This document shows positions 876 to 17,713 of a stretch of 17,713 bases of DNA, in pieces. Location of the stretch: the NCBI GenBank assembly GCA_035390665.1, contig DAOOUC010000013.1:1-17713 (forward strand), given 5' to 3'. Under the pieces are notes generated by a model. The model saw only the letters and a list, made by a program, of their open reading frames with translations, was not told the origin of the DNA and did not search any database. Each line of letters starts with the position of its first letter. Position 1 is the first letter of the stretch. Source of the DNA: an archaeon (GTDB lineage: Archaea; Iainarchaeota; Iainarchaeia; Iainarchaeales; CSSED10-239). The translations under genes and the position numbers were made by a program.

Positions 876-2228
876 ATGAAAAAATATAAAGTAAAGGCTC
901 TTGAGCCACTTATCGCATCAATTTTATTAATTGTAGTTGCTGTCATCCTTGTAACAATTGTTTTAAGTTGGGGTAAAGAATTTACAACAACTTCTGTAAA
1001 TAAAAGCAATTCTTTAATTAATCATGACATTCTAAGCGACAAGCAACCATTCATTCGCTTTGAAAAAGCAGAAAACGGAATGTATTTTTTTGATTTCTAT
1101 CCTCCAAACAATCAGGACATAAATTTTACAATAGTAGGTTATTCTCTAATTGGTTATAATAATTATATCCCTTTAGAACCAGAATACACAATAACCCACG
1201 CCGGCAAGTTTATGTTACCTTTAGGAATAATTGACGAAGACAGATTTACAATAGGTCTTCTTCTTGACGATGGTAGTTATCTAACCTTTAAAGATATAAC
1301 AAACAAAAACAGAAGCCCAAGCCCAAGTGATTGTCCAGCAGGCTTTGTTCCAGTACCTGGCAATCATCTTTATGGAACGGTTGGATCAAAGGGCGGCTTT
1401 TGTGTTGCACAGTTTGAGATGAAAGTTGATCAGAATGGCGATGGTCTTGGAGATAGCAACACAAGTTGTCAAAATAGCATTTATGCAACTTGGAATAATG
1501 CAGGCACTAATTGTGCATATAATACAGACACAAGAAGTTTAGTTTCAAGTGCAGCAGGTTATCCATTAGCAAACATATCTCAAACAGATTCAATCACTGC
1601 TTGTGAATCCATTGGTGGTCATTTAATAACCAATAACGAGTGGATGACCTTAGCAAGAAATATTGAAAGAGTACCAAGTAATTGGTCAAGCGACACAATT
1701 GGTACAGGATATATTTATTCTGGGCATAACGACGGAACTCCATATGCTGCACTTGCGGGAGACACTAACAACGGTAATGGTTATTATCTAACAGGTCAAA
1801 CAAGTGGCAATCAACGAAGAACTTTAACTCTAACAAATGGCGAAGTAGTTTGGGACTTAGCAGGAAATGTTTATGAATGGAGTGATACTATAAGTTCAGA
1901 TGATTTAAGTCTAGCTTATGATGATTATGAAAATTTAGGTGATGATGGAGAGTATTCTACATATTTTAGAACAGCAGACGGTAATTTTGGTAGTATAGGT
2001 TATAAAGGTAATTTTTTATTAAATTCAGATTATAATAGTGATAATGGAATTGGAAAAACTTGGGGTTGTACAACTGCATGTAATGGTGAGGAATATACAA
2101 TTGCGTTTTTGCGCGGCGGTACTTGGAGCAACGGAGCGAGCGCCGGACTTTTGACGTTGGACGCGAGCGGCGATCCGTCTAGCGCGGGCGGCGACTTCGG
2201 CTTTCGTTGTGTTGTAGTGCCCGAATGA
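876..2228 (+). CDS. DGR variable (target) protein: archaeal type IV pilin-like N-terminus plus C-terminal C-type-lectin / FGE-sulfatase-fold ligand-binding domain carrying the VR
   Basis: The N-terminus MKKYKVKALEPLIASILLIVVAVILVTIVLSWG has a short charged head followed by ALEPLIAxxLLI and a hydrophobic helix. This is the archaeal class III signal peptide ('archaeal flagellin N-terminal-like') pattern. From about aa 153 there are FGE-sulfatase/CLec hallmarks: CPAGFVPVPG, GFCVAQFEM, ACESIGGHLITNNEWMTLAR, GNVYEWSD, RGGTWS...FGFRCVVV. The VR occupies the C-terminal ~40 codons, in frame. Confidence 0.9.
   Translation: MKKYKVKALEPLIASILLIVVAVILVTIVLSWGKEFTTTSVNKSNSLINHDILSDKQPFIRFEKAENGMYFFDFYPPNNQDINFTIVGYSLIGYNNYIPLEPEYTITHAGKFMLPLGIIDEDRFTIGLLLDDGSYLTFKDITNKNRSPSPSDCPAGFVPVPGNHLYGTVGSKGGFCVAQFEMKVDQNGDGLGDSNTSCQNSIYATWNNAGTNCAYNTDTRSLVSSAAGYPLANISQTDSITACESIGGHLITNNEWMTLARNIERVPSNWSSDTIGTGYIYSGHNDGTPYAALAGDTNNGNGYYLTGQTSGNQRRTLTLTNGEVVWDLAGNVYEWSDTISSDDLSLAYDDYENLGDDGEYSTYFRTADGNFGSIGYKGNFLLNSDYNSDNGIGKTWGCTTACNGEEYTIAFLRGGTWSNGASAGLLTLDASGDPSSAGGDFGFRCVVVPE
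2101..2219 (+). repeat. DGR variable repeat (VR), in frame at the 3' end of the target gene
   Basis: These 119 bp align without gaps to 3231-3349. There are 20 mismatches, all at positions where the other copy has A (17 are G, 2 are C, 1 is T in this copy). Similarity stops abruptly at both ends: 2100 vs 3230 and 2220 vs 3350. The invariant 3' stretch tcggctttcgttgtgttgtagtg (2197-2219) is the expected position of an IMH-like element. Confidence 0.95.
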
Positions 2229-2342
2229 GCGTGGTCCGTTGTTTTGCCTGGACACTGGCTCCTGGACCACTGACTCCTGGAGTATAGTATGAAGTTTCTG
2301 TGAATGGAATAAAAAAGAGTTTTGGTAATAGTTGGGTTTGTT

Positions 2343-2380
2343 AAAAGGTACGATCGCGTAGCGACGTGCCTTTTGTGTTT
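2343..2380 (+). terminator. Hairpin followed by a T-run downstream of the target gene (putative terminator or DGR target-flank structure)
   Basis: aaaaggtacg (2343-2352) can pair with cgtgcctttt (2365-2374). That gives a 10-bp stem with one G.U wobble in RNA and a 12-nt loop (atcgcgtagcga). It is followed by ttttgtgttt. Confidence 0.4.
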
Positions 2381-2418
2381 GCAAAAAGATTAAAACGATA
2401 TCAGCTTAAAAAATAAAA

Positions 2419-2817
2419 TTGGGAAAAATAATGTGGGTTTATGATAAAGGGATTTCTAGTTTTAAAATATATCAAGAGATGTTTCCAGTAATTACCAATG
2501 CTTTAAATGCTTTGGTGGTTTGTGAAGAAAAAAATAAAAACTCGTCTTTTGCTTTTCTAATTTTGGATTCAAAAATAAAAGCAACAGATATTTTATCGTT
2601 TATTGCAAGTGGCTATAATAATTATGATACTAAGCTTAAAGTAATGGAATATAATAAAGCAAGAAACGCAATTTCTATTCTTCAATCTAATCTTATATTA
2701 TTAAATAATTATAAAATATTATTAGATGAAGATTTAAATGAAAATTACACTAATTTAGAAGATAAGTTAAAAATGATTTCTGGAGTTTTAAGAAAGATTG
2801 AAAAACTAAAAAACTGA
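2419..2817 (+). CDS. Hypothetical helical protein encoded inside the DGR cassette (possible divergent four-helix-bundle/Avd-like paralog)
   Basis: This is a 132-aa ORF. The track start is TTG at 2419, and an ATG at 2431 (MWVYDK...) is a likelier start. It ends 6 nt before the avd-like gene. The C-terminal half, KARNAISILQSNLILLNNYKILLDEDLNENYTNLEDKLKMISGVLRKIEKLK, loosely follows the pattern of the last two helices of four-helix-bundle (23S rRNA-IVS / Avd-type) proteins. No confident family assignment. Confidence 0.55.
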   Translation: MGKIMWVYDKGISSFKIYQEMFPVITNALNALVVCEEKNKNSSFAFLILDSKIKATDILSFIASGYNNYDTKLKVMEYNKARNAISILQSNLILLNNYKILLDEDLNENYTNLEDKLKMISGVLRKIEKLKN

Positions 2818-2823
2818 TAAAAT

Positions 2824-3156
2824 GTGCTTGATGATTTAAAAATATATAAAGAAAGTTATAATTTTTTTGTGTGGCTTTGGCCATTAATAAATAAATTTCC
2901 AAAATCTGAAAAATATGTTCTAGGTGAAAAACTAAAATTTTGTTTTTTAGAGTTCTTTGATGCAATTATTTCTTATAATTATAATTATGATAGAAAAGAA
3001 TCATTAAAAAAAGCAAATATAGAACTAGAAAAATTAAGATTATTTATAAGAATTGCAAGGGACTTAAATATTATTAATTTTACTAAATATGAAATTGCTT
3101 CTAGAAAATTAAACGAAATTGGTAAACTTCTAGGCGGTCTAATAAAAACAATTTAA
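2824..3156 (+). CDS. avd: Avd-like accessory variability determinant (four-helix-bundle protein family)
   Basis: The 110-aa sequence MLDDLKIYKESYNFFVWLWPLINKFPKSEKYVLGEKL...LEKLRLFIRIARDLNIINFTKYEIASRKLNEIGKLLGGLIKTI matches the four-helix-bundle family signature (l.vY..a..l...iy.l...fPk.Eky.L..ql ... l.iA.dl.yi....y..l...l.eigkmL.Glik). It sits directly upstream of TR, as in canonical DGRs. The start codon is GTG. Confidence 0.85.
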   Translation: MLDDLKIYKESYNFFVWLWPLINKFPKSEKYVLGEKLKFCFLEFFDAIISYNYNYDRKESLKKANIELEKLRLFIRIARDLNIINFTKYEIASRKLNEIGKLLGGLIKTI

Positions 3157-3230
3157 TTTAAAAAGTATTTCCATCTATCTTCTTTTGGGTTCTAAACCTA
3201 GGCTATACTAGATAACACAATGTTTGTCTG

Positions 3231-3349
3231 TTGCGTTTTTGCGCGGCGGTAATTGGAACAACGAAACGAACGCCGGACTTTTGAAATTGAACGCGAACAA
3301 CAATCCGTCTAACACGAACAACAACATCGGCTTTCGTTGTGTTGTAGTG
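3231..3349 (+). repeat. DGR template repeat (TR), non-coding master copy
   Basis: This is the adenine-rich copy of the 119-bp repeat, with 34 A. It is intergenic, between the avd-like gene and the RT. Read in the VR frame it encodes AFLRGGNWNNETNAGLLKLNANNNPSNTNNNIGFRCVVV, with 12 AAY (Asn) codons (10 AAC, 2 AAT). That is the classic DGR design, because adenine mutagenesis of AAY cannot create a stop codon. Confidence 0.95.
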
Positions 3350-3570
3350 TCTGCCCTAAAAGGGGTAATACAAAGAGTTTGTTTGTATTATTTTTAGTTA
3401 TTTAAAACAAACAAAGAAGTATTGTAAAAGAATACTACATTTAGTATATTCCTGGCTGGTATTTTTGCCTATATAATTTTAAATTATATAAAACAAGCCG
3501 AAAATAAACAAAAAAAAAGTAGTTAGTATTTTTTTAAAAGAATACTACTTTTTTTACAAAAATACAAAAT
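3350..3570 (+). ncRNA. TR-RT spacer, presumably part of the TR-containing DGR RNA; rich in hairpins
   Basis: There are four structures. Hairpin taatacaaa/tttgtatta is at 3366-3390. Hairpin agtatt/aatact is at 3418-3436. A perfect 10+1+10 palindrome, tatataattt-t-aaattatata, is at 3470-3490. Hairpin tagtatt/aatacta is at 3524-3547. The exact 14-mer taaaagaatactac occurs twice (3425-3438 and 3535-3548). No ORF is present. Confidence 0.5.
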
Positions 3571-4602
3571 ATGAAAACATATACTAGTTTGTGGCAGAAA
3601 CTAACTTCTTTTAAAAATCTATATCTTGCTTATAAAAAAGCAAAAAAAGCAAAACCACAAACTACTGATGCATTAGAATTTTCTATTAATTTAGAAAAAA
3701 ATATAGTGTTGCTTCAAGAGGAACTATTGACTGATAACTATAAACAATCAAAATATAGAACGTTTATAATATTTGATCCAAAACAAAGAATAATCAAATA
3801 TCTACCATTTAAAGATAGGGTTGTGCATCACGCGATAGTTAATATTATTGAACCGATTTTTGAAAAAAGATTTATTTCTACAAGTTATGCTTGTAGAAAA
3901 AAGAAAGGCACACATAAAGCACTAAAAGATATTAGAAAAGTAATTTATAACAAATTTAAAGACACAGGATATTGTTTGAAAGGAGATATAAGAAAGTATT
4001 TTCCTAGCATTAATCAAGACATTTTAAAAAATATAATTTCAAGAAAGATAAAAGATAAGAAACTATTAAATCTAATTTTTAAAATAATAACTAGCGATCA
4101 TTCCGATTTTGGAGAAACTAAAGGAATACCAATAGGTAATTTAACCAGTCAGTTATTTTCAAATATTTATCTTAATGAATTAGATCAATATGTTAAACAA
4201 GAATTAAATATAAAATACTATTACAGATATGTTGATGATTTTATAATCTTAAATGTTTCTAAGGAAGAATTGCATATAGATAAACAAAAAATAAAATATT
4301 TTCTTAAGAAAAGATTAGATCTAGATTTACCTAAGAGAAAATGTAATGTTTTTAAAATAAAAGACGGAGTTGATTATGTTGGTTATAAGCTTTTTCCAAA
4401 TAAGATATTAATAAGAAAAAGAAATCTTAAAAGATTTCTAAATAAAATAAAAAGCAAAAATACAAATAAAAACTATAATTCTTCAATTTATAGTTATTTA
4501 GGTTATTTTAAATACGCCAATTCATATAATTTATTATTAAAAATATTTGAAATTAATAAAACTTATTTAAGAGAAATAGAGCTAAGTAAAATCTATTCCT
4601 AA
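3571..4602 (+). CDS. DGR-type reverse transcriptase
   Basis: The 343-aa protein has RT motifs in order: FDPKQRIIKYLPFKDRVVHHAI, CLKGDIRKYFPSINQ, GIPIGNLTSQLFSNIYLNELD (the DGR-diagnostic [I/L]GxxxSQ), YYRYVDDFIIL (catalytic YxDD) and VDYVGYKLFP. Size and N-terminus (SFKNLYLAYKKAKKAK) are typical of DGR RTs. Confidence 0.93.
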   Translation: MKTYTSLWQKLTSFKNLYLAYKKAKKAKPQTTDALEFSINLEKNIVLLQEELLTDNYKQSKYRTFIIFDPKQRIIKYLPFKDRVVHHAIVNIIEPIFEKRFISTSYACRKKKGTHKALKDIRKVIYNKFKDTGYCLKGDIRKYFPSINQDILKNIISRKIKDKKLLNLIFKIITSDHSDFGETKGIPIGNLTSQLFSNIYLNELDQYVKQELNIKYYYRYVDDFIILNVSKEELHIDKQKIKYFLKKRLDLDLPKRKCNVFKIKDGVDYVGYKLFPNKILIRKRNLKRFLNKIKSKNTNKNYNSSIYSYLGYFKYANSYNLLLKIFEINKTYLREIELSKIYS

Positions 4603-5931: not shown

Positions 5932-7746
5932 ATGTTAAAAAAAGATTATCTTTTGTTTTTTTTAATACTTTCAATATTAATCTTTCCAACGGTTTATGCA
6001 AAAGAATTCAAAATAAACAATTATGAAATAACTTATTTTTTAGAAAAATCAGGAAAAATAAATGTTTCTGAAACAATAGATTATCAACTATCTGGTTGTT
6101 TTAAAGAACTTTATCTTCAAAGACCAGGAATTGATATTACAAATCCAACAGGGCAGTGTATAGGCGCAACTTGTGAATTTGAATATAAGCAGATAGGCAC
6201 AGAATCAGGTGACCCCGAACTAATATTACGTGGTAATTTCTGTAATCAAAAAGTTACTGCACATTTTAATTATAATTTGGAAAATCAAATTAGAAACTTA
6301 GTTGATGGTGCACAATTCTATTATCAAGTTTATCCTGGAAAAACAACTGTTTCAACTAATGCTAAAATTATGATTTATTTTCCAGGAGACATAAATAAAG
6401 TAACAAGATTTATTCATTCAAAAGATTATCTTTTAGAAACAAACGATAACGTATTAATTATTTCTAAACCGGTAGGTGCCTATGAAATAATAGAAATAAA
6501 TTTTTTAATGCCTAAGGAGTGGTTTAATCAAGGAAGTCTTTATAGCTATCCAGATACAAATTACACACAAGCTCAAATAATCCAACAAGAAGAAAACTGG
6601 GAAGAAGGTTATACAAAATATACAAAAGAAAATGTAAAAACAGAAGCGTCATTAGGCATTACATTTCTATATCTTTTCTTAATGATTGGTTTACCAATTT
6701 TATTATTATTTATTATTTGGTTAATATTTGGAAAAGAGATTCCAGAAAATAAAACAGGTTATTCAGGAACCTATGAAAGGGATTTACCTGGTGATGAAGA
6801 CCCAATTCAAGCACATTATTTAATAACAGGGAAATTATCAACACATTGGTTTTCGTCAGCAATCATGTATCTTGTTTGGAAAAAGCAATATGAATTAATA
6901 AAACAAGAAGACAAATCATTTTTTAGTTCTGAAAAATATAAATTAGTAAAAATAAAAAATGCACCAGAAATTAAACTTCCAGGTTATGTTTTAGAAGTTA
7001 ATAAATTTTTCTTAGAATATTATCCTGACGGCACAATTGATTTAGATGAATTAAAAAACGGGCAATACAAACCAAAAGGAGATTTAGATTTCTTCTCAGA
7101 ATTAGAGGAAAAAACTAATTTCGCAAACGATTTTAGTACTTTACAATTAAAGGTTAAAAAAGAAATAAGCAGATGGGAAAAAGAAAAAAAATATTTTAAT
7201 AAAACTGGAATGATTATAGCAAATATTACAATTGTTTTACATATATTTATTTTTTCAGAAATAATTCAGATGATATTTATGAGATATATTTTTCCAATAT
7301 GGATCTCATTTGTTTTTTGGAGTTGTATAATTTTAATAATTCTTGCAAATATTATTAGTAGATCCAAGATAAGTTTTGCAGTAATTTTTGGAAGGTTTTC
7401 TAAAGACGGCAGAGTTAAAAATTTACAATGGACAAATTTTAAAAGATACATAACCGATTATTCTTTAATGAAAGAGCACCCGCCACAACACGTGATTCTT
7501 TGGGAAGAATATATGGTTTATGCAACTGCTTTTGGAGTAGCAAAAGAAGTTTCAAAGGCATTAAAAGTGGTTATGCCGGAAGAAGTTTCAACAAATCAAC
7601 AATTTGCAGTATATTCAGCATTTGCAGTAAGTAGTTTTTCAACATCAACGGATTACTCGTCATCCGGCGGTAGTGGCGGCTTTGGTGGAGGTGGCGGGGG
7701 CTTTGGTGGTGGCGGTGGTGGGGGCGGCGGTGCCGGTGCCCGTTAA
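5932..7746 (+). CDS. DUF2207-type membrane protein with a C-terminal poly-glycine tail
   Basis: It has an N-terminal signal/anchor (LLFFLILSILIFPTVYA), a large extracytoplasmic domain and several TM helices. The tail SSGGSGGFGGGGGGFGGGGGGGGGAGAR is characteristic of the DUF2207 family. The start codon is 2 nt after the PRT stop. Confidence 0.75.
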   Translation: MLKKDYLLFFLILSILIFPTVYAKEFKINNYEITYFLEKSGKINVSETIDYQLSGCFKELYLQRPGIDITNPTGQCIGATCEFEYKQIGTESGDPELILRGNFCNQKVTAHFNYNLENQIRNLVDGAQFYYQVYPGKTTVSTNAKIMIYFPGDINKVTRFIHSKDYLLETNDNVLIISKPVGAYEIIEINFLMPKEWFNQGSLYSYPDTNYTQAQIIQQEENWEEGYTKYTKENVKTEASLGITFLYLFLMIGLPILLLFIIWLIFGKEIPENKTGYSGTYERDLPGDEDPIQAHYLITGKLSTHWFSSAIMYLVWKKQYELIKQEDKSFFSSEKYKLVKIKNAPEIKLPGYVLEVNKFFLEYYPDGTIDLDELKNGQYKPKGDLDFFSELEEKTNFANDFSTLQLKVKKEISRWEKEKKYFNKTGMIIANITIVLHIFIFSEIIQMIFMRYIFPIWISFVFWSCIILIILANIISRSKISFAVIFGRFSKDGRVKNLQWTNFKRYITDYSLMKEHPPQHVILWEEYMVYATAFGVAKEVSKALKVVMPEEVSTNQQFAVYSAFAVSSFSTSTDYSSSGGSGGFGGGGGGFGGGGGGGGGAGAR

Positions 7747-10801: not shown

Positions 10802-11356
10802 ATGTTAGGATGGTTAATTCCTCTAATCATTTTAGGTCTTCTTGGTTTAATTACATTATTAATGTATAATGGTTTAATTATTACAAGAAACAAAGTAAAA
10901 AATGGTTGGAGTCAAATAGATGTTCAATTAAAGAAAAGATATGATCTTATACCTAATCTTGTTGAAACAGTAAAGGGTTATGCAAAGCACGAAGCAGGAA
11001 CATTATCCAAGATTACAGAATTAAGAAGCCAAGCAATGCAAACAAAGGATAAGAATTTAGCAATGAAAGCAAACGATCAAATGTCAAAAGCAATTGGTGG
11101 TTTACTAAACGTTGTTGTTGAAAATTATCCTGATTTAAACGCAAGCCAAAATTTCTTAATGCTTCAAGAAGAATTATCAGGTATTGAAAATAAAATAGCA
11201 TATGCAAGACAGTTTTATAATGATACAGTAATGGATTACAATAACAAATTACAAGTTTTCCCAAACAATATCTTTGCAAAAGCATTTAATTTCAAAGAAG
11301 AATCATTCTTAGAAGCAACATCTGAAGAAAAAAAAAACGTAAAAGTTTCTTTTTAA
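10802..11356 (+). CDS. lemA: LemA family protein
   Basis: It has a single N-terminal TM helix followed by YNGLIITRNKVKNGWSQIDVQLKKRYDLIPNLVETVKGYAKHE...YARQFYNDTVMDYNNKLQVFPNNIFA. This closely matches the conserved LemA core. Confidence 0.9.
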   Translation: MLGWLIPLIILGLLGLITLLMYNGLIITRNKVKNGWSQIDVQLKKRYDLIPNLVETVKGYAKHEAGTLSKITELRSQAMQTKDKNLAMKANDQMSKAIGGLLNVVVENYPDLNASQNFLMLQEELSGIENKIAYARQFYNDTVMDYNNKLQVFPNNIFAKAFNFKEESFLEATSEEKKNVKVSF

Positions 11357-11483
11357 TTTCTTCTTTTTTTCTATTTTTAACTTTATTTTAGTAAATAGTT
11401 AATATTTATATTCTTTTTCTTATTAAACATATATAAATATTTGTATCTTATAAATATATTATATATTAAAAGAGAGATAATAA

Positions 11484-14400
11484 ATGGCAAAAGCAAAATC
11501 CAAACCAGCTAAAGAAGAATTTGATGATTTTGAGGAAGAAGATTATGATTATTCCGATGAATCAAAATCAAAAGAAAAAAATATTTTCGGAAAAGCCTAT
11601 AGCTTTTTAGAAGAGAAATATTTTGCTTTTTCTGATTGGTTATCAAAGAAAGGAATTCCTTTAGATAAATTAAATACTTTCTTAGAAGAAAAAGGTATAC
11701 CTTCTTTTGCAGCAGTTACTTGTTTTTTCTTTTTGCTACTTGCAATAATTATTTTAATAATAATTAACATAGCAACAACAGCAACAATAGAATTAAACAT
11801 TACAGATTATTCTAATAATTCTTTATCTGATGTTCAATTAATTGTTTCTGATTTATATGGTAAAACAAAATTTAGTGGAATAGTAAATGATGGCGACAAA
11901 ATTAAAGCCAAATTAAAATCAGGAAGTGATTATGTAATTGAAGCCACAAAATCAGATTTAGAAAATTATAATAATCAGATAGTCTTTGTAAGAGGGGATA
12001 AATTTAATATAAAGTTTAATGAAAAATATACAACAGGAGATTTAAGTATTGTTGTAACAGATACTCAAACAAAGAAAAAAGTTCCATTATATGAAGTAAA
12101 ATTAAATTTTAGAATAAATGGAGAAGCAAAAGAAGAGGTTGCTATTGCAGATGAAAAAGGAGAAATTTCTTTTACAAATATTCCTTTAGATAAAGACATT
12201 ACATTAACAGTTAATGCAGATGGCTATCAAACATATTCTCAAAATTTTAGATTATTAAATTCTGTTGAAACAAAAAATATAGAATTGGCATTTGATGAAG
12301 ATTCTATATTATTATCAGGAAAAGAATCCAAAGTTACAATCGTTGTAACAAAAGAAAATGGAGACTTGATAGATGCAGCAGATGTAACAATTTATAACAC
12401 AGCAGGAGAAATAATTGCAACAAATTTAACTGTTCTTGGTAAATCAGTATTTACTTTAAACTCTGGTCAAGCAATAAGGTTTGTAGTATCAAAAGAAGGA
12501 TATAGAACATATGATAGTGATAAAGAAGAAAGATCTTATAGAATACAAAACCCAGAAGAAACCTATACTGCAAAATTAATTGCAGGAAGTTCTGATTTAA
12601 AAGTAAAAGTTTTAGAAAAAGGTGTTGGTCCTTTATCTGAAGCAGAAGTTTCTTTATATAATTCAAGTAATAATTTAATTGAAAGTAAAACAACACAATT
12701 AGACGGGATTGTAATATTTACAGGTTTAGATAAAAATACAGAATATATTGTAACAGCTTGTAAAACAGGATACTATTGTTTACAATCTTTTGCAAACATA
12801 GAAGAAGAAAACGAAATTCAACAAGAGTTAGAAAAAGTAAGCATAGACACTAGTGCATTATTATCTATTTATGTTTATGATTCTTTAAATTCTCCAATGA
12901 CAAACGCAAAAGTTAATGTTTTTAAAGAAGTTATGTCAAGATATGTGGCAACAGGTCATGGCACATTATCTGTTGATTTAACAGGCCAAACATCAATAAT
13001 GACAAAACATGGAGACAAATATAAAGTAACTGCAATTGTTGGCGAAGTTGAAAAAACAGAAGAGATAACTATTGATCCTTTTAAAGATAATAAATTAATT
13101 TTGATTTTAGATCAAGCATCAAGATTTGTTACTTTAAATTTAACAGATAAAGATGGAAATCCAATAACTGAAGGTTGTGTATTAATAAAATCAAAAACAG
13201 GAGAAATTCTTTTTGATGATTGTTTGAATGGTTCAAATATAGTTGAATTTAATAATAAAGGATATAAAGATTTAATTGTAGAATACACAGACATAGAAGG
13301 AAACACAACAACCATGTCAACAAGACTTGGAGAATCTGATGAAATAAATTTAAAAATTAAGCAAACAACTGTTGGAAATAATCCAGTAATTAGCTTCTTA
13401 GAATTAAGGGATTCTTATAATTCTTTAACTCCAATTTTAAGTTTAGATAAAGAATATTATGCAGTCTTTGATGTTTTGATACCAGAAGGGGCAACATCTT
13501 GTGCAGTACATTTTAGAGCAGGAGATGATGAACAAACAGATTCAGATAATATGACTTACGGAATAACAGGTTATAAGGCAGACACAACAAATTACAAGTA
13601 TTCAACAACATACACCCCAGGGCAACAATCAATAGATTATGATAATTCTGGTTCTCCAAATCAAATAAACAAATGGCTAGAATTATATTGGAAGAATTTA
13701 GATCAAATAACAAATAAGCAAATAATGATAAAATTAAAAGCAACAGAACTTGATGAAAAATTTATTTTAAAATATAGAGTGTGGTGTGAATCTGAAGGAA
13801 AAGTATATAGAGATCCAATAGATTCTGTTTTAGGAGAAACAAGATCTAATTCTCAAAAACAATTTTTATATGCAGACACAAAAGAGCAAACATTTGATGT
13901 TTTAGAAACTCCTGCAGATTGCTCCGGAGATTTATGTATTGATTATAAGTTTATAGATGATAGCTCATTTGAATATACTCCCGAAAAATTCTATGCAGTT
14001 AAAGAAGGATTATATGCATTAGAGTTGTCTTTCTTAAGTATGAAAAATACAGAATTATCAATTGATTCTGAAACAGACAAATCTAGACCAATAATTGGGT
14101 TAGTAAATTATCAAGATACAGGAATGTTCCCAAGTAATACTGTAGCTTCAGAAGAAGTTCAATTATCTTACACAAATTTAAATTTAGAAGCAACAAAAAG
14201 AAAAGCAGTTTATCTTTTCTTTATTGCAAAAGAAACAGGATCAACATATCTTGATTTAAAAATAAATAATAATTCTAAAATTACAGAAAAAAGAATAAGT
14301 TTTAATGTTGTTCCAAGAAAAACAATGGAAGTTTTAGTTAAAGATGTAATACCATATAATTCTCCAATAGTTGTTGAGATTAAAGACAAAGACACAAAAA

Positions 14401-17400
14401 AAATAGTAGATACTGCCTTTGTGAAAGTAAGTGATGATTCTGGAAGTTTATTAGGTAGTGTGAAAAATAGTAAAACAGGGAAATATATAATTAATCAAAA
14501 TTTCTCTGTAGCAAAACCAATTCTTGAAGTTACTGCTCCAGGTTATGCTCCATATGCAAAACATTTGATTATTGCAGATACAGGCATATTGTCTGCACCA
14601 GATAGATTAGAAATTAGATTTGGAGAAAACATTAGTCAAGAGTCAGAGTCATTTATAATAATAAATAAAAGTAGTCAAGAAATTACAGATTTAACCTATC
14701 AATTAAATTATATTGATTATGTTGCAAGCATGCAAGCAACTTTAGACTTACCAGCTGTGTTAAAATCAGGAAAATCTGAAAACTTAGAATTAATAACAAC
14801 CGTTGATCCTAAAGCAAATTTTAAAACCGCAAAAGGAATTTTAACAATTTCAGGATTTATTGGTAATAAGCAAGTTGTTAAAGAAATTGAAGTAATTTAT
14901 TATAGAGGAACAATAGAAAGTGATTGTTTAGAAATAAAACCAAAACAATTGTTTGCTTATGTTGGAATAAGTGAAGGTTCAAGTCAAGAGTTAATGTTTT
15001 CTGTACATAACAATTGTCAAAAAGCAATATCTATAACTCCTGAGCTATTAAATTCAAGAGGCACAAAGATTAGAAAAGATGAAAATATAGAAATAATTAT
15101 TCCAAATATAGATATAGAAGCAAATGAACAAATTGATGATTATACAATTGTTGTAAAAAATAATAAAGAAAGAAAATTAACAAAAACTTATAATTTCGAA
15201 ATAGCATGGAGAAATCAATATTTTGTTTTCGAAAATACAAAACTTAATGTTGAATTAGTAGATTTGTCAAAATCATTAGTAGTTATACCATTGGCATCAG
15301 CAATTTCTTTAGTACAAGTTGTAGATCAACAACCAGCATTAAATCAAACAAGATTTATATTAAAGAATGTTGGTAAATATCCATTAACAGACATCCAAAT
15401 ATCTAGATTTGAAGCAACAACATATTCAAATATAGAAGATAAAATAGAGCCTCCAAGTTTTGAATCTATAAAACCAGGAGAATCAAAATCAATAACAATA
15501 AGGTATTCTGGTAAAATTGATAAAGCAACATATGCTGATTTATATTATCAGGTTACAGCTAATGCAGTAGGGGTCAGTACACCAATAACTACAAAGTTTA
15601 GTGTTGGATTTATGTTTTCTTCTGCTGGTTGTTTAAAGTTAGATCAAACAAAGATTAGTTTCTATTCTAAAGTAAATGAAGAAAAAACAAAATTAATTAA
15701 TATTACAAATCAGTGTGCAGAACCTGTAGGTTTAATAACACACGACCAGGGAAATAGCACATATTTTATAGATACCTTTGGAGATGGAACACAGGTTTCA
15801 ATATATCCTGCAGTTGCTGCTCCTGTAATTTATCCTGGTCAAACAATAGGTTATTTTATAAGAATAAAACCAACTAAATATTTCACACCAAAAACAGATA
15901 GAGTTGTGAGATTATTAGGTGTTCCAACAAATTATGGACAAGGAGGAAGAGTAACTTCAAATACTTTCCTATTTTCTATAGAATTAGAACCAGAACACCC
16001 AGATCAAGAAGAAGATTATAAAAGAGTAGAAGAAAATATAAGTATTCCAGTTTGTGGAAAAGATTCAGAATCTGACGATTCAACAGTTGATTATACTTTC
16101 CCAGTAATTGTCCCTGATTGTAAACAAGACGGATATTGTGATTCCTATTCTGCTGCCGAGTTAATTTTAGAGCAAATACAAAGTTTACATACAGAAGTAA
16201 TAAATTCTTCAAATCAAGCAAATAATAAAGTTGTTCAAACAGCATGTTCACAAACTGCAGCAAATAACGGTTATTGTCCAATCTCAGACATATTGCCTCC
16301 ACAAAAATTACAAGAATATAAAAATATTTTATTGTATTTACAAAATGATAACTTAAGTGAAAGAACTATTGAGTTATTATTAAAAGATGGAAACACAAGT
16401 GCAACTAAATATCCAACCATAAAAGATTACATGGTAAAGGCAAATGTAGGTTATACAACAGGTGGTTTAGGATTTTCAGGAAATGTAATACATATTTCAA
16501 ATAAATTAAATGGTTGTGGAAGATATAAATTAGAAATAACAGGAGCCATAGCTACAAAAAACTACACAGACTTAGATCCACAAAGGGCTTATTTCTTCTT
16601 AGATGTAGTTGATTCAAATAAAACAGATCAATGTAAAAAAAATATAGAAAATGTAATGATATTTTTACCAAAAGATTTGAAATTTAGAAGAACAAATACA
16701 GGAGATACTTGGCTTACAATAATAACAGGAAGCAAAGATTTTGCACAACCAATAGCAAAAGATGTATTTGGTTCAGAAGATAGATTTGTTTTAAAATCAG
16801 TAGAACAAAAGAAATACAGTTTATTAGATGTAACAATAGGGGAATTAAAAGACAGTGAATCTGATGCAATCGCAAAAATGTATTATAAAGATTCAGTTGA
16901 TTCAAATAATTCTAAAGCCGAAGAAGTTTCAATAATAATAAATGATAAATTTGGAATTAAAAAAGAAGGCATTAAAGATGTAAATTATCCTGCAGAATTT
17001 ATAACAGATACTTCAAGAAGCATTAAAGCAATATTAGAAGGTAAACCTGCAAATATTTGTATATCAGAAGACAAAAGTTATATGTTAATTATGTCTATTG
17101 ATTCAGATTATGGATCTTTATTCTTAAAATCAAAAGCAGATGGTAAATTACAATTAAAACCAACAAAGACATGTACAGAGTTTACAGTTAAATCAGCAGT
17201 TAATGAACAAGTTTCAATTTCTTATGAAGATCTTTCAGGAATTCAACTTAATTTTAACTATGATGGTAAAGATTATCCAAGTCCTATGCCTTTGGTTTTA
17301 GAAAAAGACAAAGAATTAGATTTCAATGTTTGTATTAAATCAGACATTAGTCAAATATCGTCTTGGAATAATAAAGAATTAAAAGTAATAGCTGAAAGTA

Positions 17401-17713
17401 AATTTTCTGAAGTTGGAAAAATTAATTCTAAAAGGAAAGGAGAAGCAATTGTAAAATTATCTTCTTATGGAATAACCCCTATGGAATTACTTTCAGTAAT
17501 ACAAACAACAAAAGATGAAATGATTAAAGATAAAAAAGACAATGAAATAATCTATGCTTATGTTGATTGGGAAAAAGAATATAGTTCTTCAAACACAGAA
17601 GAATACTGTAAGACTTTAGAAAGATATAATTTAAAATTAGGAGACAAAGAAACAACATTTAGAAAACCTGCAGAATGTGATTTTGAGGAAAGTAAATCAG
17701 AAAAAACTGCAAA
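11484..17713 (+). CDS. Giant membrane-anchored surface protein, 3'-truncated by the window end (more than 2076 codons)
   Basis: It is absent from the supplied ORF track. Hand translation from the ATG at 11484 stays open for 6230 nt to the last base. No other + strand ORF and only short - strand shadow ORFs are listed here. It has an acidic N-terminal tail (EEFDDFEEEDYDYSDES) and one TM helix (about aa 74-98, nt ~11703-11777). Then come tandem beta-sandwich-like repeats and Cys-containing, Asn/Thr/Ser-rich extracellular sequence. Confidence 0.85.
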   Translation, partial: MAKAKSKPAKEEFDDFEEEDYDYSDESKSKEKNIFGKAYSFLEEKYFAFSDWLSKKGIPLDKLNTFLEEKGIPSFAAVTCFFFLLLAIIILIIINIATTATIELNITDYSNNSLSDVQLIVSDLYGKTKFSGIVNDGDKIKAKLKSGSDYVIEATKSDLENYNNQIVFVRGDKFNIKFNEKYTTGDLSIVVTDTQTKKKVPLYEVKLNFRINGEAKEEVAIADEKGEISFTNIPLDKDITLTVNADGYQTYSQNFRLLNSVETKNIELAFDEDSILLSGKESKVTIVVTKENGDLIDAADVTIYNTAGEIIATNLTVLGKSVFTLNSGQAIRFVVSKEGYRTYDSDKEERSYRIQNPEETYTAKLIAGSSDLKVKVLEKGVGPLSEAEVSLYNSSNNLIESKTTQLDGIVIFTGLDKNTEYIVTACKTGYYCLQSFANIEEENEIQQELEKVSIDTSALLSIYVYDSLNSPMTNAKVNVFKEVMSRYVATGHGTLSVDLTGQTSIMTKHGDKYKVTAIVGEVEKTEEITIDPFKDNKLILILDQASRFVTLNLTDKDGNPITEGCVLIKSKTGEILFDDCLNGSNIVEFNNKGYKDLIVEYTDIEGNTTTMSTRLGESDEINLKIKQTTVGNNPVISFLELRDSYNSLTPILSLDKEYYAVFDVLIPEGATSCAVHFRAGDDEQTDSDNMTYGITGYKADTTNYKYSTTYTPGQQSIDYDNSGSPNQINKWLELYWKNLDQITNKQIMIKLKATELDEKFILKYRVWCESEGKVYRDPIDSVLGETRSNSQKQFLYADTKEQTFDVLETPADCSGDLCIDYKFIDDSSFEYTPEKFYAVKEGLYALELSFLSMKNTELSIDSETDKSRPIIGLVNYQDTGMFPSNTVASEEVQLSYTNLNLEATKRKAVYLFFIAKETGSTYLDLKINNNSKITEKRISFNVVPRKTMEVLVKDVIPYNSPIVVEIKDKDTKKIVDTAFVKVSDDSGSLLGSVKNSKTGKYIINQNFSVAKPILEVTAPGYAPYAKHLIIADTGILSAPDRLEIRFGENISQESESFIIINKSSQEITDLTYQLNYIDYVASMQATLDLPAVLKSGKSENLELITTVDPKANFKTAKGILTISGFIGNKQVVKEIEVIYYRGTIESDCLEIKPKQLFAYVGISEGSSQELMFSVHNNCQKAISITPELLNSRGTKIRKDENIEIIIPNIDIEANEQIDDYTIVVKNNKERKLTKTYNFEIAWRNQYFVFENTKLNVELVDLSKSLVVIPLASAISLVQVVDQQPALNQTRFILKNVGKYPLTDIQISRFEATTYSNIEDKIEPPSFESIKPGESKSITIRYSGKIDKATYADLYYQVTANAVGVSTPITTKFSVGFMFSSAGCLKLDQTKISFYSKVNEEKTKLINITNQCAEPVGLITHDQGNSTYFIDTFGDGTQVSIYPAVAAPVIYPGQTIGYFIRIKPTKYFTPKTDRVVRLLGVPTNYGQGGRVTSNTFLFSIELEPEHPDQEEDYKRVEENISIPVCGKDSESDDSTVDYTFPVIVPDCKQDGYCDSYSAAELILEQIQSLHTEVINSSNQANNKVVQTACSQTAANNGYCPISDILPPQKLQEYKNILLYLQNDNLSERTIELLLKDGNTSATKYPTIKDYMVKANVGYTTGGLGFSGNVIHISNKLNGCGRYKLEITGAIATKNYTDLDPQRAYFFLDVVDSNKTDQCKKNIENVMIFLPKDLKFRRTNTGDTWLTIITGSKDFAQPIAKDVFGSEDRFVLKSVEQKKYSLLDVTIGELKDSESDAIAKMYYKDSVDSNNSKAEEVSIIINDKFGIKKEGIKDVNYPAEFITDTSRSIKAILEGKPANICISEDKSYMLIMSIDSDYGSLFLKSKADGKLQLKPTKTCTEFTVKSAVNEQVSISYEDLSGIQLNFNYDGKDYPSPMPLVLEKDKELDFNVCIKSDISQISSWNNKELKVIAESKFSEVGKINSKRKGEAIVKLSSYGITPMELLSVIQTTKDEMIKDKKDNEIIYAYVDWEKEYSSSNTEEYCKTLERYNLKLGDKETTFRKPAECDFEESKSEKTA

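Follow-up and report, generated by a model that had tools for sequence, protein, structure and literature searches.

The last 6.2 kb of a 17,713-nt archaeal contig (GenBank DAOOUC010000013.1, contig C13 of its assembly), which was analysed over its entire length and is referred to below as the window, hold the 5′ two-thirds of one real giant gene of ~3,000 codons (positions 11484-17713), here named giant 1. We consider it moderately probable that the protein is a surface arm that grips another cell and cuts its wall. A preliminary description of the window, made from its letters, had presented the product as a membrane-anchored giant with a long extracellular region of beta-sandwich modules and as a candidate for cell contact, and this picture is supported. 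It is extended by the adhesin-type folds of the modules and by the distal domains described below, a putative murein hydrolase in this protein and recognised ones in some orthologues. The assembly to which the window belongs (848 kb, 21 contigs, 86% complete, 28% GC) carries a full-length archaeal small-subunit rRNA (1352 bits), and the named public contigs with giant-1 orthologues include those of Candidatus Iainarchaeum, Candidatus Forterrea multitransposorum (CP045477) and archaeon GW2011_AR10 (CP010424). The organism is a member of the Iainarchaeota (Diapherotrites), a DPANN archaeon.

The giant frame and its putative continuation

Computational listing and translation of the open reading frames (ORFs) returned, as first described, a single plus-strand frame at 11484..17711 that starts with ATG and runs through 2,076 codons with no stop, leaving 2 nt over at the contig end. 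The two other frames of the same strand contain 236 and 234 stops over these 6.2 kb and the reverse frames contain 89-195; at this base composition (42% A, 30% T), a run of 2,076 codons would be free of stops with a chance of ~1e-89. The ATG start is backed by orthologues that begin with MAKEKAKPK.... The gene had been noted as missing from the ORF track supplied with the window, and so it is, because that track lists only frames closed by a stop codon and the contig end cuts the gene.

The preliminary description had named two observations that would speak against a single gene, an in-frame stop and codon statistics pointing to several fused or frameshifted genes. No stop was found on translation, and the codon statistics are uniform along the gene: GC contents at codon positions 1/2/3 are alike in each 600-codon block (0.38-0.40 / 0.31-0.35 / 0.10-0.13, or ~0.39/0.33/0.11). 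Tandem DNA repeats are absent from the gene. Although the contig end cuts the gene and the assembly is fragmented, which would suit an artefact made of fused or frameshifted genes or of a chimeric contig, we rejected such an origin as having a negligible probability: ~235 stops in each of the other same-strand frames stand against none in this one, the composition by codon position does not change, and the orthologues are collinear single frames of 2,640-3,180 aa in dozens of genomes, including the closed chromosomes CP045477 and CP010424.

Based on a six-frame search, 36 of 40 relatives have a giant-1 match. Orthologues from the same genus are matched at E = 0 with 50-68% identity and have open frames of 2,950-3,130 aa, and those at the family and order levels show 24-37% identity in frames of ~2,530-3,450 aa. 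The nearest full-length relative, P0003, has 3,182 aa and is 63% identical over 2,063 aa of the part in the window. In an alignment of the window protein with 30 orthologues (31 sequences), occupancy does not fall below 0.83 between residues 41 and 2076, and conservation peaks in an N-terminal tag (41-80) and at residues 641-800. From these lengths, the full protein would have roughly 2,800-3,100 aa, about one third of it lying outside the window. Separately, we observed an Iainarchaeota-type giant-1 gene or cluster in public bins labelled Falkowbacteria, Thaumarchaeota, Micrarchaeota and Pacearchaeota (L034, JAFCBY010000012.1; L035, JAFCCH010000030.1; L047, JAZDJR010000014.1; and L057, JBAYNB010000006.1, respectively), whose labels are probably wrong or coarse.

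Extension of the contig to its stop codon, which the preliminary description had proposed, succeeded in part: a candidate C-terminus was located on another contig, C11, and the piece linking the two contigs was not found. As candidates for the continuation, we considered frames of the assembly that are left open by a contig end. Of these, a 592-aa frame at the start of C11, open at its 5′ end, can be aligned with the C-terminal ~450 aa of three orthologues from the genus and terminates no more than 6-7 residues from their stops; additionally, the layout of C11 (giant-1 C-terminus, pilin-like gene, giant 2, giant 3) matches the synteny of relatives. Because of this end alignment and this gene order, we take C11 as the putative continuation of C13, with a gap between them that different orthologues bracket at ~100-440 aa. 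Contig C3 also ends in a candidate frame, of 2,055 aa, which we rejected as the continuation, since its C-terminus resembles that of giant 2 and C11 fits instead. The last 34 nt of the gene had no exact match among the metagenome contigs scanned. In one genus relative (L023, DAOOON010000009.1, 10001-19353), the giant-1 frame is split by unknown bases into parts of 2,541 and 433 aa; the similar position of the gap in that gene and in ours suggests that the region is hard to assemble.

Predicted anchor and extracellular modules

The N-terminal organization proposed at the outset, a short acidic head followed by a single transmembrane anchor, agrees with our analysis. Residues 1-74 contain 18 D/E against 13 K/R, and FAAVTCFFFLLLAIIILIIINIATTA, at residues 75-100, is the only strong hydrophobic segment of the window protein. 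Four K/R residues stand just before this helix and none just after it; since these flanking charges follow the positive-inside rule, the head is predicted to be cytoplasmic and the helix to act as an N-in signal anchor. Giant 1 has the arrangement by which its orthologous group is recognized, i.e., the tag, then a single transmembrane helix, with no cleavable signal peptide.

The tag has the motif F/Y-x-x-L-E-E-K-Y-F...KKGIP...LEEKGIP and is found at the N-terminus of all giant-1 and giant-2 proteins of relatives. A hidden Markov model of the tag built from orthologues matched the window protein with an E-value of 1e-30, giant 2 on C11 with 3e-19 and a 2,144-aa giant on C3 with 2e-7. This element may be a handle for the export of the giants or for their assembly with a pilin-like partner.

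Beyond the anchor, Pfam, orthologue-profile, AlphaFold2 and Foldseek evidence bore out the beta-sandwich modules that had been read from the sequence; the domain annotation by profile searches and structure prediction recommended then identified a CnaB/prealbumin-type stalk and an Ig-like segment, S1, which are followed by segments S2 and S3 (Table 1). Pfam matches in the stalk are CarboxypepD_reg (2e-13), bMG3, SdrD_B and SpaA, and the orthologue profile matches the CnaB2 domain of FbaB (PDB 2x5p, E 6e-5). A single-sequence PDB search with the first domain gave nothing significant, and for this reason the link to CnaB2 draws on the profile search only.

S1, the most conserved segment of giant 1, is without a family match. 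Its AlphaFold2 model, calculated from the 31-sequence alignment, has a mean predicted local distance difference test (pLDDT) score of 87.1 and consists of three beta-sandwiches. The top Foldseek matches of this model in the PDB are the Ig-like domains of PrgB, an adhesin of enterococci (7.6e-11), and the C-domains of the antigen I/II proteins AspA, SpaP, BspA and SspB; further matches are the integrin alpha legs and the MG domains of alpha-2-macroglobulin, and factor XIII and transglutaminase 2 are also present. The TM-scores are low because three domains were compared at once, and the fold matches of the predicted structure identify a type of domain, not a specific relative. Stalk, S1 and tag are common to giant 1 and giant 2 (S1, E 2e-26).

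S2 and S3 are specific to giant 1, with no match in its paralogues. Pfam support for S2 comes from orthologues, with CarboxypepD_reg at residues 976-1043 of L016 and DUF7507 at 1282-1333 of P0010; the count of about four beta modules in this segment was read by eye. S3 had no match in Pfam, NCBIfam, PHROG or the PDB, and the NCBIfam search of the window protein as a whole gave no match either.

The Cys pairs that the preliminary description mentioned proved to be real, in that their members are gained and lost together across the 31 sequences. Fifteen of the 25 Cys residues are invariant or nearly so (813/818, 1148/1178, 1383/1411, 1524, 1552, 1588/1598, 1678, 1717, 1859, 1897 and 1950), and the less conserved ones come and go together (426/432, 565/580, 673/768 and 2042/2065). 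Such pairing is the pattern that would be expected of disulfides in an extracellular protein. The abundance of N-x-S/T sequons, also mentioned in that description, was not sustained: 22 are present versus 20.2 expected from composition. We therefore rejected an enrichment in glycosylation sites, as the sequons are at chance level.

The distal end and its putative substrate

In the orthologues, a conserved, moderately hydrophobic Cys/Gly-rich hairpin (...GCxxxC...WNCGxGCGLP...) lies directly beyond the point at which the window ends. A Gly-rich stretch and several hundred low-complexity residues that are probably coiled come next; another hydrophobic patch rich in Gly then leads to a small beta domain, after which comes a terminal domain. 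PHROG searches gave no meaningful match for the C11 fragment, for the C-terminal thirds of two orthologues or for S3. A similarity of the C-terminal third to phage or tape-measure proteins was rejected on the absence of such a match and is kept as an architectural analogy only.

In alignments of 8 and 12 sequences of the terminal domain found in this genus, one Cys (NYCSAF) and one His (PSHVVLYVGK) are invariant, and a second His, 17 residues further on (IIHQWG), is nearly so. This Cys-His-His order is that of NlpC/P60 enzymes, and in the AlphaFold model (pLDDT 74.7, predicted TM-score 0.76) a helix that begins with the conserved Cys (residue 65) is followed by a sheet. An hhalign comparison with a bona fide NlpC/P60 profile gave a probability of 84% and an E-value of 7.7e-6, with Cys/His/His aligned to the catalytic triad; the cross-controls were null (0.2% for the Cys-His-His domain versus SLT, 0.1% for the other C-terminal type versus NlpC/P60). 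The six best Foldseek matches in the PDB are all NlpC/P60 or CHAP murein hydrolases, of which the best is NlpC2 of T. vaginalis (6biq; probability 0.99, E 0.014), with PlyPy (5udm), the phi812 hub CHAP (9eum) and an S. aureus amidase among the others. Among viral proteins, the closest folds are those of NlpC/P60, CHAP and lysin proteins of phages, with a best E-value of 2.9e-3. In the PDB profile search, the C-terminal domain family matched nothing but Tae2 (6win), a type VI amidase effector, and this without significance (E 0.25). Two proteins combine the domain with other enzymes: in P0003, a canonical NlpC/P60 domain (PF00877, 1.5e-23) comes right after it, and in P0015 it occurs together with a YkuD L,D-transpeptidase.

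These lines are weak singly and mutually consistent, and on the modelled fold the terminal domain looks like a divergent NlpC/P60-like, papain-like Cys-His-His domain, which would be expected to cleave stem or amide bonds of peptidoglycan. It resembles the NlpC/P60 and CHAP enzymes (PF00877, 6biq, 5udm, 9eum) in the order and spacing of Cys...His...His and in the helix at the Cys that precedes the sheet. It differs from them in falling below Pfam detection, in a longer Cys-to-His spacer with an extra conserved A-W/N-x-V-W segment, and in being very rare: an exhaustive HMMER search found it in 20 proteins among 1.84 billion representatives. Efforts to enlarge the alignment of this domain brought in only 7 further proteins, so that the fold model was made from 12 sequences.

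The ends of 25 complete orthologues were sorted by type. The Cys-His-His domain is the end of this genus, five Forterrea-type proteins have no enzyme domain, and ~15 order-level proteins share an unnamed end. Canonical hydrolases occur in other lineages. The end of L041 carries NlpC/P60 (9e-7), Amidase_3 (2.8e-20) and Glucosaminidase (2e-10) in tandem, and this protein also gave a weak LRAT match; PF00877 is present in the 3,381-aa giant-1 frame of G038; and canonical SLT domains are present in the giant-1 frames of G037:C25 (6.4e-15) and G031:C23 (2.2e-12), which are the same contigs and frames that the six-frame search identified as giant-1 orthologues. By these domain assignments, one and the same scaffold carries murein hydrolases of four classes at its distal end, depending on the lineage.

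The unnamed order-level end is a domain of ~170 aa (...VPEALLVTVAIWK...GC...CAA..L...) observed in L033-L038, L042, L044-L046, L048, L049 and L055, to which no family was matched; the SLT-like character ascribed to it by eye was rejected, with an hhalign probability of 0.6%. SLT (PF01464) itself has no match anywhere in the genome of the window, the C11 fragment included. Of 61 genomes searched across the archaeal order, 27 gave an SLT match, 24 of them at a score that exceeds the Pfam cut-off; several of these domains lie within frames of 1,900-2,900 aa. The genome of the window also encodes a canonical NlpC/P60 domain (PF00877, 36.7 bits) in a separate 433-aa ORF (C10 18362-18766, L062).

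An alternative is that giant 1 is a structural envelope or cohesion protein of the archaeon's own cells, which might form a canopy over the S-layer or connect sister cells, and that its terminal domain is a non-murein peptidase or a transglutaminase-like cross-linker, or is inactive. Stalk-like beta-sandwich domains are indeed most of the protein, and many orthologues have no recognisable murein hydrolase. The papain-like fold includes transglutaminases and acyltransferases, to which the weak LRAT match in L041 and the factor XIII and transglutaminase 2 matches of S1 could be related, and the ten ORFs of at least 1,500 aa, which make up 7.2% of the assembly, would fit an abundant structural role. 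We nevertheless hold this alternative to be unlikely, given that independent orthologues have unambiguous SLT, Amidase_3 and Glucosaminidase domains at the same position, that the catalytic triad is invariant or nearly so, and that murein-specific enzymes would be without a substrate in an archaeon in which no murein-synthesis genes were found.

Neither a Mur ligase nor a penicillin-binding-protein transpeptidase was found in this genome (86% complete). Because of this and of the hydrolase ends, the substrate is most likely someone else's wall. The wall in question need not belong to a living partner: giant 1 could be a surface-tethered scavenging enzyme that digests environmental peptidoglycan debris and so supplies amino acids and amino sugars to an organism whose own biosynthesis is minimal. 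The same hydrolase evidence would apply, the genome is small and has no known partner, and adhesin-like modules could equally bind wall fragments. A tether of ~3,000 aa with a tag, a hairpin and pilin-like and giant partners is, however, far more elaborate than secreted scavenging enzymes need, and orthologues without the enzyme domain keep the remaining architecture, which makes scavenging improbable as the function of the protein.

We regard as still more doubtful a contact-dependent weapon or defence whose wall-degrading domain kills or lyses competing bacteria, in effect like type VI amidase effectors, instead of sustaining a symbiosis. An immunity gene is neither needed nor seen, and giant 1 is anchored to its producer, a small non-motile cell that would gain little by killing unless it also feeds. 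In favour of such a weapon, Tae2 is the only PDB profile match, if a non-significant one, phage lysins and virion-associated hydrolases are among the fold matches, and the hydrolase cassettes have been swapped between lineages, as occurs in effector arms races.

In the mechanism that we favour, that of an arm that grips and cuts, the head would lie in the cytoplasm and the helix would anchor giant 1 N-in, while a disulfide-stabilised chain of modules would project far past the cell surface. The adhesin-type modules would bind another cell, and the cysteine peptidase or amidase at the tip would cut the peptide stems of its peptidoglycan; the Cys/Gly-rich hydrophobic hairpin may insert into a membrane. 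In this way the archaeon would hold on to a bacterial wall and open it locally, which could serve attachment, feeding or exchange.

Several points weigh against this mechanism. The terminal domain is located on another contig, and the putative join of C13 and C11 draws on homology and synteny, with no sequence overlap; a tblastn search of the whole assembly for the missing hairpin region found nothing. No Pfam model, PF00877 included, claims the terminal domain of this genome's protein, its hhalign probability is below 95%, and its structural matches are weak, with no Foldseek E-value below 0.001 and TM-scores of ~0.4. The five enzyme-less Forterrea-type ends and the ~15 unnamed ends mean that a wall hydrolase is not universal in the family. 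With the genome 86% complete, the absence of murein genes is unproven. The topology, the disulfides and the membrane insertion proposed for giant 1 are predictions from its sequence, and we know of no partner organism.

Gene neighbourhood and related systems

The gene order in relatives is phosphoenolpyruvate (PEP) synthase, low-molecular-weight phosphatase, LemA, giant 1, a pilin-like protein (490-670 aa) and giant 2. In the genus, giant 1 always has LemA as its immediate upstream neighbour; in three family-level relatives, LemA is also upstream but at a distance of ~7-9 kb. The AT-rich intergenic stretch between LemA and giant 1 may act as a promoter. On C11, the pilin-like protein had no Pfam match. 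The minus strand of C3 (~89-123 kb) carries another four ORFs, each at least 1,997 aa long, and one of these has the same N-terminal tag. The coordinates of these and other features are given in Table 1.

Table 1. Location of giant 1, its segments and neighbouring genes (positions in the window unless contig C11 is named)
Feature	Position	Strand	Basis or remark
Giant 1, 5′ part (2,076 codons + 2 nt)	11484..17713	+	0 stops, uniform codon-position GC, collinear with 30 orthologues
Predicted cytoplasmic head, aa 1-74	11484..11705	+	Genus-specific acidic/Lys-rich extension, then ~40-aa tag (aa ~33-74, ...NIFGKAYSFLEEKYFAFSDWLSKKGIPLDKLNTFLEEKGIPS)
Signal-anchor transmembrane helix, aa 75-100	11706..11783	+	Hydropathy scan; sole strong transmembrane segment in every orthologue
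Stalk, ~5 CnaB/prealbumin-like beta-sandwich domains, aa 101-615	11784..13328	+	Pfam and profile-PDB matches
S1, three tandem adhesin-type Ig-like beta-sandwiches, aa 616-1015, invariant Cys813/Cys818	13329..14528	+	AlphaFold2 and Foldseek
S2, aa 1016-1490	14529..15953	+	CarboxypepD_reg-like domain in orthologues, then ~4 beta modules; Cys pairs 1148/1178, 1383/1411
S3, Cys-rich module, aa 1491-2076, nine invariant Cys	15954..17711	+	Conserved in 30 orthologues
AT-rich intergenic region	11357..11483	+	Upstream of giant 1, after LemA; TATA-like runs TTTATATT, ATATATAAATA (sequence read)
LemA	10802..11356	+	Pfam LemA 1.4e-59; synteny marker, functional tie to giant 1 not implied
DUF2207 membrane protein	5932-7746		Upstream of the giant gene
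Diversity-generating retroelement (DGR) target, FGE-sulfatase/CLec-type	876-2228		Variable repeat (VR) at 2101-2219
DGR 132-aa ORF, unassigned	2419-2817		
DGR bAvd	2824-3156		
DGR template repeat (TR)	3231-3349		83% identical to VR
DGR reverse transcriptase	3571-4602		
Pilin-like protein, 569 aa	C11 (L020) 1816-3522		Starts MKLNNKGFTLFTALISLILVS; class-III-type signal KG/FTLFTAL
Giant 2, 2,563 aa	C11 3659-11347		Tag, stalk and S1 in common with giant 1
Giant 3	C11 11395-16860		Broken by 100 N at 16113, tandem repeats there

The nearness of giant 1 to a DGR, to which the preliminary description had drawn attention, turned out to be incidental. The DGR of the window is complete. The only VR/TR pair in the window is that of the DGR itself, with no VR copy in 11484-17713, and DGR genes are absent beside the orthologues, where LemA and PEP synthase are present. 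We rejected a link between the DGR and giant 1 on these two grounds.

A farther-reaching possibility is that giant 1, the pilin-like protein and the tagged paralogous giants form a single contact apparatus, in which giant 1 would first bind a bacterium by its adhesin modules, next cut the murein with the hydrolase cassette of the lineage concerned and last insert the hairpin into the membrane of the bacterium, as an archaeal, chromosome-encoded analogue of a phage tail-tip or tape-measure penetration device. We give this possibility little weight; if true, it would be the first molecular evidence of Iainarchaeota living on bacteria rather than archaea.

As the preliminary description had advised, giant 1 was compared with giant proteins of other DPANN archaea, which yielded an orthologue in Forterrea and an analogous kind of protein in Woese- and Pacearchaeota. 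The Forterrea chromosome CP045477 has the same arrangement of giant 1 (2,671 aa), pilin-like protein (559 aa) and giant 2, a case of true orthology; its giant 1 shares 32% identity with residues 24-2074 of the window protein, to which it is collinear, and is the first giant of the 42-kb region discussed in the Forterrea paper. That paper devotes one sentence to the giants and proposes a role in cell-cell interaction, without a domain analysis. Forterrea-type giants end after the Gly-rich patch and the small beta domain, to which the genus of the window adds the Cys-His-His NlpC/P60-like domain.

Proteins that reach 3,000 aa and carry murein-like lytic transglycosylase domains are described for Pacearchaeota and Woesearchaeota by Castelle et al. 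2021 (PMC8204110), who propose that these proteins bind and degrade bacterial walls. By description, such SLT giants (fam00969) follow the same logic as giant 1: a giant extracellular protein, encoded in a small genome, with a bacterial-type wall hydrolase, which points to bacterial partners. They belong to a different phylum, and the genome of the window has a divergent NlpC/P60-like domain instead of SLT, although two Iainarchaeota giant-1 orthologues (G037 and G031) do carry SLT as fam00969 does. That account of fam00969 does not include the tag, the hairpin or the pilin-like partner of giant 1.

Giant 1 shares with the fibrillar adhesins of Gram-positive bacteria (FbaB, SdrD, AspA/SpaP/SspB and PrgB) the tandem CnaB and Ig-like types of stalk domain. 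Unlike them, it would be anchored in an archaeal membrane by an N-terminal helix and not by a C-terminal LPXTG sortase motif; neither an LPXTG motif nor a hydrophobic tail was found at the giant-1 C-terminus on C11, which ends with ...YDQFVTKTA. It also differs from these adhesins in its conserved Cys pairs, in being ~3 times longer and in having a putative hydrolase at its end.

To our knowledge, neither hosts nor attachment machinery have been established for most DPANN archaea, and the Iainarchaeota are without any cultured partner. The general idea of such wall-directed giants has already been proposed for Woese- and Pacearchaeota; what is added here is the domain map, the split C-terminus, the rare divergent NlpC/P60-like domain and the swapping of cassettes across the family. 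Three modules, the N-terminal tag, the Cys-rich S3 and the rare NlpC/P60-like domain, are uncharacterised. The family spans the order, and its combination of adhesin-type modules with interchangeable wall hydrolases leads to the testable hypothesis that Iainarchaeota may physically engage bacteria.

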